From positions 1-43,836 of the forward strand of contig WSMU01000002.1 in the NCBI GenBank assembly GCA_013316395.1: a stretch of DNA of 43,836 nucleotides. Reading direction: 5' to 3'. Below the pieces are notes generated by a model, which ran no database searches, was not told the DNA's origin, and saw nothing but the letters and a program-made list of their open reading frames with translations. Positions 3,483 through 3,691 of the stretch are shown here, one piece after another. How positions within the stretch are numbered: position 1 is the first letter of the stretch; every line of letters starts with the position of its first letter. This DNA comes from Alphaproteobacteria bacterium (GTDB lineage Bacteria > Pseudomonadota > Alphaproteobacteria > Rs-D84). The translations under genes and the position numbers were made by a program.

Positions 3483-3501
3483 TTTATCCTCCGTATTTTT
3501 G

Positions 3502-3658
3502 AAAAACAAAAATCCGCCGTGATGAAGGGCGGTTGGAGGTTAAGAACTACAATAGTATAGTGCTGTTTATTTAGATATATCACAGCCCTCCAACCGGTTG
3601 TGGAGTTTTAAAACTATTGGAGGTTCTTACACCTCACACCGGGTATCACCCGATGCAT
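3502..3658 (-). ncRNA. Unclassified structured RNA / attenuator-like leader, copy 1, upstream of the small XRE gene
   Basis: No credible ORF. Helices CGGGU/ACCCG (3640-3652), GAGGU/ACCUC (3620-3635), GCUGU/ACAGC (3562-3586) and GGUUGGAGG/CCUCCAACC (3587-3595 with 3531-3539). Terminator CCGCC-N9-GGCGG plus U5GU5 (3502-3532). A second copy lies at 37082-37241. Ends are estimated. Confidence 0.65.
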
Positions 3659-3663
3659 TGGGA

Positions 3664-3691
3664 ATTATACCAGACATGCTACAGATTGCAA
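3664..3691 (-). promoter_or_regulatory. Extended -10 promoter driving RNA copy 1
   Basis: Minus strand reads TTGCAA (3686-3691), a 16-nt spacer, then TGgTATAAT (3664-3672). Confidence 0.6.

Follow-up and report, generated by a model that had tools for sequence, protein, structure and literature searches.

A family of structured leader RNAs upstream of small XRE-type regulator genes in uncultured Alphaproteobacteria, a candidate two-state transcription attenuator

The stretch of alphaproteobacterial DNA analyzed here (43,836 nucleotides of contig WSMU01000002.1, hereafter the window) carries on its minus strand two copies of a compact module that comprises a promoter, a leader RNA, a Shine-Dalgarno (SD) sequence, a small helix-turn-helix (HTH) open reading frame and a strong terminator, a layout that is conserved in related genomes. 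A preliminary description of the sequence had listed a set of motifs for copy 1, and all of these recur on the minus strand, position for position; the promoter scan scored its TTGCAA and TGgTATAAT elements at 10 of 12 matches, with the TG, and the second copy that it reported is present at 37083-37243(-), followed by an 84-amino-acid HTH ORF. The features of the two modules are given below, where X, Y, X' and Y' are hypervariable segments, A, B and C are conserved segments, and folds I and II are two alternative structures of the leader.

Copy 1
3686-3691, minus strand: -35 hexamer TTGCAA, 16-nt spacer; conserved in most copies
3664-3672, minus strand: extended -10 element TGgTATAAT; TGnTATAAT in nearly all copies listed
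3636-3656, minus strand: hairpin P1, including CGGGU..ACCCG; stem 100% paired, with compensatory changes
3631-3635, minus strand: S1, GAGGU; fold I partner ACCUC, distal, at 3535-3539; nearby CCUC at 3620-3623 is the partner in fold II and at early stages of transcription
3623-3629, minus strand: hypervariable X, UAAGAAC, partner of X'; five pairs of the helix change on both sides
3620-3622, minus strand: internal loop CUC, facing UA at 3548-3549; invariant in 31 core copies
3613-3619, minus strand: hypervariable Y, CAAUAGU, partner of Y'
3596-3605, minus strand: segment A, CUCCACAACC; its CUCCA forms a stem with UGGAG of B, and the remaining bases make up the loop
3587-3595, minus strand: segment B, GGUUGGAGG; partner A in fold I or C in fold II
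3562-3586, minus strand: hairpin P3, GCUGU..ACAGC; four of five pairs change on both sides
3557-3561, minus strand: ACUAU; part of the junction and unpaired in fold I, paired with GUAGU (3546-3550) as the 5' arm of hairpin 2 in fold II
3550-3556, minus strand: hypervariable Y', ACUAUUG
3541-3547, minus strand: hypervariable X', GUUCUUA
3531-3539, minus strand: segment C, CCUCCAACC; fold I partner S1 (through CCUC), fold II partner B (over all 9 nt); its final CC also belongs to the terminator stem
3514-3532, minus strand: terminator hairpin CCGCC-N9-GGCGG; stem invariant in 31 copies
3502-3513, minus strand: U-rich tract AUUUUUGUUUUU, ending 9 nt before GGAGGA
3487-3492, minus strand: SD sequence GGAGGA of the HTH gene, with ATG at 3482
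3264-3482, minus strand: XRE-like HTH ORF, 72 aa
3233-3256, no strand assigned: strong hairpin terminator after the HTH ORF, closing the module
Copy 2
37247-37255, minus strand: extended -10 element TGaTATAAT, without a -35 hexamer at normal spacing
37083-37243, minus strand: whole RNA; covariance-model match 172.2 bits
37206-37212, minus strand: X
37196-37202, minus strand: Y
37178-37187, minus strand: segment A
37169-37177, minus strand: segment B
37144-37168, minus strand: hairpin P3
37131-37137, minus strand: Y'
37122-37128, minus strand: X'
37112-37120, minus strand: segment C
37093-37113, minus strand: terminator
37065-37070, minus strand: SD sequence
36805-37059, minus strand: XRE HTH ORF, 84 aa

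The protein encoded by copy 2 passes the Pfam models HTH_19 (32.9 versus 30.2) and HTH_3 (25.2 versus 23). The copy 1 protein has no Pfam match of its own, whether to HTH_3, HTH_19 or HTH_31 at the curated cutoff or to another model; it shows 39% identity to protein P0005 (E=3e-14), a further member of the subfamily, P0026, passes HTH_3, and by sequence similarity we call it a putative XRE-type regulator. The leader itself had been described as lacking a credible ORF and is indeed structured and non-coding, the two candidates that can be read in it being poorly conserved. The 5' AUG of copy 1, a possible leader-peptide start, is UUG, GUG, ACG or UCG in other copies, and a 36-codon upstream ORF runs from a GUG in P3 of copy 1 to the AUGA of the HTH gene, but copy 2 lacks it and length variation of Y' breaks its frame; a leader peptide was therefore rejected.

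The minus-strand element is a real, formerly unclassified family of structured RNAs of about 155 nt located upstream of small XRE-type regulator genes. Both window copies fold better than chance (z-scores of minimum free energy (MFE) -4.37 and -4.50, with 0/200 shuffles folding equally well), and at the gathering score Rfam matched only tRNA in the whole window, the nearest family to the leader being sRNA-Xcc1 at 31 bits versus a cutoff of 53. The covariance-model search of related genomes suggested in the preliminary description recovered a multi-copy family, of which 40 copies from the window, alphaproteobacterial metagenome-assembled genomes (MAGs) and metagenome contigs were aligned: 36 core copies, which score 147-184 bits, and four divergent ones, one of them borderline (18 bits, E=0.007). 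Each of five reference MAGs of uncultured gut Alphaproteobacteria contains 2-6 copies. The copies are scattered one at a time between housekeeping genes and have promoters and terminators of their own, and all canonical copies with downstream sequence show an SD and an HTH ORF of 70-106 aa within 10-20 nt, then a strong terminator; wherever downstream sequence was to hand, the ORF is followed by a hairpin equivalent to that at 3233-3256. Promoter scans detected no conserved internal promoter for the HTH ORF, BLAST of the leader against plasmids and phages gave no match, and neither did a pattern scan of viral contigs. Two copies lack an ORF and lie in tandem beside a canonical copy with their own promoter and terminator (L053:1618-1800 and L040:412-596), and the gene downstream of one divergent copy encodes an outer-membrane beta-barrel; the leader RNA may therefore be able to act on its own. 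A MITE-like palindrome adjoins many copies, and leaders and ORFs are reshuffled from locus to locus.

In the predicted dominant fold (fold I), a long helix, X:X' plus Y:Y', forms the base of a three-way junction, and the terminator remains free. The helix is a composite of about 20 bp, built from GAGGU:ACCUC, X:X', the conserved CUC/UA internal loop and Y:Y', and the junction contains the A:B hairpin and P3. Fold I is both the MFE and the centroid structure of the two window copies, and covariation establishes it across the family: 98.1% of the cells are paired, and both sides change in 13 pairs (103 cells), a level reached by 0/500 shuffles. The A:B stem is kept while its loop varies (CAACCGGU, GUUCGGU, UUG, UCG, CCG). 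J1/2, the longest strand of the junction, varies in both length and sequence and acquires an extra hairpin in divergent copies. GUGAU in the P1 loop and AUCAC in the terminator loop are complementary; at the corresponding column pair 16-144, 23 copies have UA, 7 have CG and 1 has another combination. Thus the helices listed in the preliminary description are present, but the main one, X:X' with Y:Y', was missing from it; the GAGGU-N6-ACCUC hairpin that it noted does exist at 3620-3635, as an early or alternative structure, whereas fold I pairs this GAGGU with the ACCUC at 3535-3539. The complementarity of the P1 and terminator loops and the multi-copy nature of the element were likewise absent from that description. 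If the attenuator model set out below holds, the family adds a well-defined, covariation-supported RNA to a bacterial group without cultured members, in which hardly any regulatory RNAs are known.

Fold II is conserved in a different manner. B:C, GAGG:CCUC and hairpin 2 are compatible with pairing at 99-100%, and the fold as a whole at 99.8%, in 31 copies. The B:C helix is 100% paired, but B and C are invariant in the 36 core copies, which leaves no covariation there. Segment B or a B-like variant occurs in 40/40 aligned copies, the only departures from GGUUGGAGG being in L051 (last base) and the borderline L040a (a compensated B'), and both B and C stay nearly invariant in divergent copies although P1, X/Y, P3 and the terminator all differ. 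The compensations seen in B:C, namely U-A to U-G (L037, L040b) to C-G (L040a) at B3/C7 and G-C to U-G at B9/C1 in L051, come from the four divergent copies, the borderline one included. Hairpin 2 also covaries in divergent copies (CAAU:AUUG, GAUA:UAUC, UGCA:UGCA).

The mutual complementarity of CUCCA, GGUUGGAGG and CCUCCAACC, together with the 2-nt overlap with the terminator, constitutes the most conserved feature set of the family, and the overlap persists with a different terminator, CCAC..GUGG. A terminator/antiterminator layout is accordingly present at the sequence level, with the alternative helix taking CC(G), 2-3 nt, of the 5' arm. The antiterminator pairing of GGUUGGAGG with CCUCCAACC proposed in the preliminary description thus proved nearly invariant, and close to the main fold in predicted energy. 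In ensembles of the full-length mRNA, the predicted difference between folds I and II is 2.3 +/- 2.5 kcal/mol, that is, nearly equal energies, and forcing B:C incurs a predicted penalty of 3-8 kcal/mol. Prefix folding favored B:C exactly before the 3' arm of the terminator is made, and reverted afterwards. The terminator hairpin is weak (predicted -7.1 kcal/mol, 5-6 bp, 9-nt loop); the terminator scan covered loops of 3-8 nt and so did not list this hairpin of copy 1, and in copy 2 the U run begins 4 nt past the stem. These predicted energetics are consistent with a switch. Masking of the SD, put forward in the preliminary description, was not consistently predicted: the mean unpaired probability of the SD is 0.31 in fold I versus 0.27 in fold II, and we discarded masking as the main output.

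On balance, we lean toward reading the element as a two-state leader RNA that would serve as a transcription attenuator of a small XRE-type regulator gene; going by the modeled folds, it would most likely gate read-through into that gene. The extended -10 promoter would start an RNA of about 155 nt capable of two mutually exclusive folds. In fold I, the putative ground state, P1 and the long X/Y helix would form and the terminator hairpin would remain free, possibly with added stability from kissing between its loop and that of P1; RNA polymerase would stop, the ~155-nt RNA would be released and the HTH gene would be off. In fold II, B (GGUUGGAGG) would leave A, pair with C (CCUCCAACC) and enclose P3 and the ACUAU[Y']GUAGU hairpin. 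Because B:C would use up two to three bases at the start of the terminator stem, polymerase could read through into the HTH ORF. We infer that termination and read-through are the alternative outputs and that the choice of fold would decide between them. If this is true, the leader would exemplify a natural switch with two partners for almost every conserved base.

How stable the copy-specific X/Y helix is would determine, or address, where the balance lies in each copy. X/Y duplexes average -13.35 kcal/mol for cognate and -5.06 kcal/mol for non-cognate combinations, the cognate partner ranks best in 23/26 copies, and L001, L006 and L031 form a series of compensated and single-mismatch intermediates (L001 to L006 to L031). 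Coevolution of the X/Y address with the HTH protein is contradicted by the copies themselves: L013 and L021 have an identical address and unrelated HTH proteins, and L016/L017 and L029/L030 have near-identical HTH proteins with differing addresses. A speculative extension of the attenuator model, which we consider rather doubtful, is that the copies are paralogous self-addressed switches, each with a unique X/Y versus Y'/X' key and lock around a frozen switch core. A terminated RNA would then recognize nascent transcripts from its own locus alone and act back on their termination, which would amount to the heteroimmunity logic of c4, P4 CI and Xcc1, domesticated for several orthogonal XRE regulators per small genome. 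Such a hypervariable, self-complementary address helix could offer a scaffold for orthogonal synthetic attenuators.

The closest known relative is sRNA-Xcc1 (RF02221). Copy 1 matches full model positions 1-87 of this family at 31.2 bits (E=0.0015), with the gathering score at 53 bits; copy 2 has no match at E<=10, L026, L051, L057 and L059 have none at E<=1 in a search that scored phage controls at 65.4 and 53.0 bits, and our leader-RNA covariance model scores phage Xcc1 loci at 6 bits or less. The resemblance is to fold II. In sRNA-Xcc1, a 9-bp closing helix surrounds two hairpins and is followed by a C-rich tail, and in the window RNA the 9-bp B:C helix surrounds P3 and hairpin 2 and is followed by GCCCUU. 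A true sRNA-Xcc1 of E. coli EDL933 (L061:620-708(-), 69.1 bits) lies 40 nt upstream of the ATG of a Stx-phage antirepressor gene (ant), and the 3' strand of its closing helix, CACCCGACC, shares CC with a downstream hairpin, CCGCCAG..CUGGCGG, just as C does with the terminator in the window RNA; this likeness of position and overlap is an observation on a single member, EDL933, rather than an Rfam criterion. In three Stx-phage variants, the loop of Xcc1 hairpin 2 covaries with an upstream segment, which parallels Y'/Y of the window RNA and suggests specificity-bearing control of antirepressor expression as a possible function of sRNA-Xcc1. Published sRNA-Xcc1 sites are Xanthomonas integron cassettes, before symE, and APSE phages, before an ORF6N gene; the cargo is small in both families: for Xcc1 it is ant, symE (a toxin gene) or a gene with an ORF6N domain, and for the window RNA an XRE HTH gene. 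Unlike Xcc1, the window RNA includes P1, S1, X, Y and A as an additional 5' domain of the same transcript, has another fold available as its ground state, and is chromosomal and multi-copy in Alphaproteobacteria rather than borne on phages or integrons. A guessed Xcc1 consensus pattern gave three chance matches in viral contigs, without Rfam support, and was dropped. The best reading of these analogies is that the window RNA may be a two-state terminator/antiterminator leader akin to the phage c4/Xcc1 RNAs that has been taken into the service of a chromosomal family of paralogous XRE regulators, which, if true, would tie this family to the poorly understood sRNA-Xcc1 and c4 RNAs of phages and integrons.

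More distant parallels concern architecture. Neither window copy matches Rfam C4 (RF01695) at E<=10, a class whose mature RNA is cut from its leader by RNase P/PNPase. In P4, a central segment complementary to upstream and downstream leader segments is tied to premature termination (PMC4825925), and the P4 CI arrangement (seqA/seqB/seqC) resembles the window RNA in having both partners of the central segment in one leader. Short complementary specificity segments differ among related elements in P1/P7 c4 and P4 CI as in the window family; unlike them, the window RNA does not reside in a prophage, and its variable segments find their partners in one another, on the 5' side of the terminator, rather than in the ribosome-binding site that follows. 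The c4-like idea raised in the preliminary description therefore comes nearer to the closest relatives, with sRNA-Xcc1 before phage ant, but fails on that targeting. IsrK of Gifsy-1 consists of a promoter and an sRNA with an intrinsic terminator and partial read-through, and two structures decide its output (PMC4825925), a layout and mode of control similar to those proposed here; however, short IsrK lacks the lower strand that is bound in the long form, whereas both strands of the window RNA lie upstream of the terminator, the output of IsrK is translational whereas SD accessibility in the window RNA is predicted to be unchanged, and Rfam IsrK did not match the window RNA. The alphaproteobacterial Cuckoo RNAs and alpha-r14 (NfeR1), which are anti-SD sRNAs, share the multi-copy character and repeated CCUCC-type motifs. 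Cuckoo RNAs are built of 2-4 neighboring hairpins whose loops carry CCUCCUCCC, and they lack a multiloop (PMC4615179), in contrast to the window RNA, which has no CCUCCUCCC, places CCUC, CUCCA and CCUCCAACC inside helices, and combines a three-way junction with an ORF further downstream. Classical attenuators, such as riboswitch expression platforms and leaders that depend on a protein or tRNA, likewise have exclusive helices, one overlapping the 5' arm of the terminator, directly upstream of an ORF; the window RNA differs from them in having no recognizable sensor domain, leader peptide or binding motif, and an overlap of just 2-3 nt.

Several alternatives to the attenuator have to be weighed, and the one to which we give some, though clearly lesser, credence is a stand-alone, trans-acting sRNA of the c4, IsrK or Xcc1 type, in which the terminated ~155-nt RNA would be the functional product, targeting by base pairing either read-through transcripts of its own locus via X/Y or other mRNAs via CCUCC, and the HTH gene would be expressed solely by leakage through the terminator. 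The ORF-less tandem copies with their own promoter and terminator speak for it, as do the resemblance of the hypervariable, self-complementary X/Y to specificity segments of phage immunity RNAs, the similar loop covariation in Stx-phage Xcc1 and the fact that a cognate-grade X/Y combination is common to two copies of the same genome in 0/64 pairs; moreover, IsrK is documented both as an sRNA and as the leader of its own read-through mRNA (PMC4825925). In the terminated RNA, however, both address strands would already be tied up with each other in a helix worth about -13 kcal/mol, and the CCUCC motifs reside in helices, not loops. Nor did candidate targets emerge: the variable segments have no match with <=4 mismatches elsewhere in the window and show no preference for their own translation-initiation region (cognate -9.3/-7.9, non-cognate -9.9/-8.3 kcal/mol; median rank 15-17 of 34), and within-genome non-cognate combinations are not weaker than between-genome ones (p=0.53), giving no signal of within-genome selection for orthogonality.

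An unlikely alternative is a processing or stability element, the ~20-bp composite helix being an RNase III-type substrate of which the shape alone matters; cleavage would part the 5' region from the HTH mRNA and set its half-life. The helix is conserved in structure, free in sequence and equipped with a conserved internal loop, and the L001, L006 and L031 intermediates resemble ordinary compensatory drift. Still, the strict conservation of A, B and C, the C-terminator overlap and hairpin 2 would be left unexplained, and with the fold I helix upstream of an intact terminator most transcripts would contain no ORF. It is still more doubtful that the junction is a riboswitch that would bind a small molecule or ion and stabilize fold I or II: a junction with a covarying closing helix leading into a terminator/antiterminator is classic riboswitch architecture, and tandem copies occur in some riboswitches, but J1/2 is variable as described above, the conserved unpaired ACUAU, CUC/UA and CAACC each have an alternative partner, the cargo genes are regulators rather than metabolic or transport genes, and no Rfam riboswitch model matched at E<=10. 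Very improbable, finally, is a DNA-level element (a recombination site, attC-like, or a MITE-borne promoter) with RNA structure as a by-product. The succession of X box, spacer and Y box with a large variable terminal structure recalls a folded attC, sRNA-Xcc1 was first described in integron cassettes, and the adjoining palindromes and the reshuffling of leaders and ORFs point the same way. Against this, the X boxes do not match RYYYAAC/GTTRRRY, the gene tables inspected list no integrase beside any of the singly dispersed copies, which have their own promoters and terminators, and an attC-like site was rejected on these grounds. G-U pairs are frequent (GU:30, UG:24, UG:14) and fit the minus-strand RNA only, indicating a strand-specific structure at the RNA level, and the reverse strand folds with equally good energy but has neither promoter nor terminator.

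Two minor observations concern individual loci. The search with the HTH protein of a divergent copy returned three proteins only, and at L056 a truncated Arm-DNA-bind/Phage_int_M gene is located at the edge of the locus, about 1.8 kb from the leader copy.

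The preliminary description of the minus strand at 3483-3691 is confirmed as an observation. All of its named motifs are present at their coordinates, and its promoter (TTGCAA and TATAAT separated by 16 nt, with an upstream TG; 10 of 12 matches) was found independently by a promoter scan. Trained on 31 distinct copies of this RNA, a covariance model detects exactly two within the window:

3483-3691, minus strand: copy 1 of the RNA with its promoter, the RNA 3' end formed by CCGCC-N9-GGCGG plus AUUUUUGUUUUU, 9 nt before GGAGGA and ATG
Downstream of copy 1, minus strand: ORF of 72 codons, with the ATG after GGAGGA
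37083-37243, minus strand: copy 2 of the RNA, before an ORF of 84 codons

The minimum free energy (MFE) z-scores of the two copies are -4.37 and -4.50, with none of 200 shuffles as good. The opposite strand folds equally strongly, and the RNA strand is identified from its promoter, terminator and numerous G-U pairs. No leader peptide or upstream ORF is conserved. A GUG within the P3 hairpin of copy 1 (3562-3583) starts a 36-codon frame running to 3480, whose UGA stop overlaps the HTH start codon (AUGA), and this frame is absent from copy 2 and the other copies. In most copies, an A tract able to pair with the terminator U tract (UUUUU..AAAAA) follows it, directly before the Shine-Dalgarno (SD) sequence (3502-3513 with 3493-3501; also 37075-37092). 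A 10-bp GC-rich hairpin flanked on both sides by T runs (3233-3256) separates the HTH ORF from a convergent ORF of 110 aa and is probably a bidirectional terminator. An ordinary feature of the window is a tRNA gene (16867-16937, minus strand; 63.3 bits), just upstream of ORFs that, from their sizes only, read as secE-nusG-rplKAJL-rpoBC.

Proteins of both window ORFs were found on metagenome-assembled genome (MAG) contigs where the modules, each comprising promoter, RNA, terminator, HTH ORF and closing terminator, lie amid housekeeping genes: one in the order rpoC-rpmF-plsX-module-mraZ, the other between an ACR_tran-family transporter gene with a HAD-family gene and rmuC-def-fmt. A single pattern scan of GTDB species genomes yielded 19 loci, spread over five MAGs that are labelled uncultured Alphaproteobacteria and have 2-6 copies each at dispersed sites, and a second pattern leaving the central region free added 8 real loci from metagenomes. 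All four further HTH homologues that were looked up (eight loci) have the RNA directly upstream. Every full-length core copy scores 147-184 bits with the covariance model, and divergent copies score 73, 44, 40, 34 and 18 bits; plasmid and phage collections and viral contigs contained no match to the RNA.

The copies are near-identical outside two short segments, which follow GAGGUGU and precede AACCUCCAACC, respectively; these are wholly different between copies yet mutually complementary within each copy. Segment X (7-8 nt) pairs with X' and Y (6-7 nt) with Y', with a conserved CUC/UA internal loop between the helices. Cognate duplexes average -13.35 kcal/mol vs -5.06 for non-cognate ones, and for 23 of 26 copies the cognate partner outranks every other. 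With GAGGU:ACCUC added to its length, the helix forms the closing stem of a three-way junction, which contains P3 and a CUCCA..UGGAG hairpin that joins segments A and B. The resulting structure, fold I, leaves the terminator free and is the MFE and centroid structure of all copies examined. Its pairing holds in 98.1% of cells of the 31-sequence alignment, with double-sided changes in 13 pairs (103 cells), and neither any of 500 shuffles nor any slid register approaches this. Given this, the previously proposed GAGGU-N6-ACCUC hairpin is not the evolutionarily supported partner; it is the first structure to form in folds of successive prefixes. The comparison loci (L numbers) include strain-level variants of this helix: L003:2823-2979 carries the 5' Y of one allele and the mismatched 3' Y' of another, possibly an assembly chimera; L006:2823-2979, with one mismatch, stands between two alleles that are both compensated, and L019:5231-5383 has lost Y'.

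The loops of P1 and of the terminator are also complementary and co-vary, with GUGAU:AUCAC in 23 copies, GUGAC:GUCAC in 7 and a single exception. The latter version occurs on the other terminator type in L056/57, and the divergent copy L015b has AUAAGU:ACUUAU. The terminator hairpin is otherwise weak (predicted -7.1 and -10.8 kcal/mol), and a kissing contact between the loops would stabilize it. Independent events are few in number, because most C-G cases share one leader subtype.

An alternative structure, fold II, combines the previously proposed GGUUGGAGG:CCUCCAACC helix between segments B and C with a local GAGG:CCUC hairpin and hairpin 2, ACUAU[Y']GUAGU. These three elements are compatible in 99-100% of cells and are invariant in the core family, so that covariation is uninformative there. 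No elements are more conserved than B and C, which persist in divergent copies with differing P1, X/Y, P3 and terminator sequence, and the CAACC half of C is unpaired in fold I. At B3/C7, the core U-A pair is U-G in copies L037 and L040b and C-G in L040a, where segment A is also altered, to CCAGC; at B9/C1, the core G-C is U-G in L051. Hairpin 2 appears in divergent copies as CAAU:AUUG, GAUA:UAUC and UGCA:UGCA, with double changes in 3 pairs and at most 4 of 500 shuffles matching on every measure. Where the terminator is an unrelated one, CCAC..GUGG, C still overlaps its 5' arm by two bases. Forcing B:C is predicted to cost 3-8 kcal/mol in the terminated RNA and 2.3 +/- 2.5 kcal/mol in full-length mRNAs. 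In prefix folds, fold I is the MFE structure once CCUC has emerged; fold II takes over as soon as all of C is out in copy 1 and six nucleotides later in copy 2, in both before synthesis of the terminator 3' arm, and fold I with the terminator returns at full length. Drawn from thermodynamic prediction and four divergent sequences, including one borderline match (18 bits), the case for fold II as a second state is suggestive, not conclusive.

The earlier interpretation is supported in part: the RNA is unclassified, structured and plausibly a terminator/antiterminator, and the secondary structure needed substantial revision. Of the mechanisms weighed, a two-state attenuator has the best support and is slightly more likely than not; for it we infer expression, termination and switching alike. 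Its chief competitor is a model in which the effector would be the terminated RNA itself. The variable segments match neither their own translation-initiation region nor any other part of the window, predicted SD accessibility does not differ between folds I and II, and within genomes no selection for orthogonality could be detected. The window RNA matched no riboswitch or other Rfam family, the only notable signal being sRNA-Xcc1, which falls short of membership.

Every canonical copy with downstream sequence available precedes an ORF of 70-106 aa and then a strong terminator. XRE-type HTH matches were obtained for 8 of 10 representative proteins, only the 84- and 106-aa representatives passing curated cutoffs; the 72-aa protein encoded after copy 1 lacks a match of its own and is placed in the family by its similarity in pairwise and profile comparisons. 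The leaders (83% mean column identity, variable segments included) are far more alike than the cargo proteins, which are 13-58% identical to that of copy 2. Leaders and ORFs occur in reshuffled combinations: the same leader precedes unrelated ORFs in L013 and L021, and L016/L017 and L029/L030 have near-identical ORFs with different X/Y. Two ORF-less copies, L053:1618-1800(+) and L040:412-596(+), have their own promoter and terminator and lie in tandem with, and immediately 5' of, a canonical copy and its HTH gene. A divergent copy with a different P1 and terminator, L015:6099-6266(-) (44 bits), precedes no HTH gene but one for an outer-membrane beta-barrel protein of 210 aa, which has a signal peptide and an OMP_b-brl match.

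Copy 1 scores 31.2 bits against sRNA-Xcc1 (gathering score 53), with the full model aligned to fold II. That model matches neither copy 2 nor four other copies, and the covariance model of the window RNA family does not detect the phage Xcc1 loci. In published examples, sRNA-Xcc1 precedes symE in integron cassettes of Xanthomonas and an ORF6N gene in APSE phages. E. coli EDL933 and related Stx phages carry a genuine member (69.1 bits), located 40 nt upstream of the antirepressor gene (ant), with SD and ATG following. The 3' strand of its closing helix shares CC with the hairpin that follows, and this layout matches that of the window RNA. The loop of Xcc1 hairpin 2 and that of another hairpin, lying some 110 nt farther upstream, co-vary as three versions (CAAAUAAG / CUUAUUUG, CUUCAAAG / CUUUGAAG and CGUCAG / CUGACG) among these ant leaders:

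L061:620-860, minus strand: Stx-phage ant leader
L062:420-611, plus strand: Stx-phage ant leader
L063:190-395, plus strand: Stx-phage ant leader

This co-variation, of which a limited search of the literature on these RNAs found no earlier description, suggests a specificity-bearing loop-loop contact and mirrors Y/Y' of the window RNA. RNAs of the phage c4, P4 CI, IsrK and Xcc1 class combine a central segment that has complementary partners on its upstream and its downstream side with specificity segments and a terminator that permits read-through (PMC4825925). By analogy of geometry and of the Y/Y'-like loops, the window RNA would thus work like this class. It differs from the class in being a separate sequence family with the 5' partner segments fused into one transcript, and in being chromosomal, multi-copy and tied to XRE regulators.

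In related MAGs, a MITE-like palindromic element of about 110 nt adjoins the promoter of many copies upstream of the -35 region (L029:3290-3400(-); also L013, L014, L016, L017, L022, L023 and L028), with ends ACTGGATTGCC...GGCAATCCAGT and inner repeat CGCAATGACA..TGTCATTGCG. The window has only a single end-like sequence, at 37266-37276, overlapping the -35 region of copy 2.
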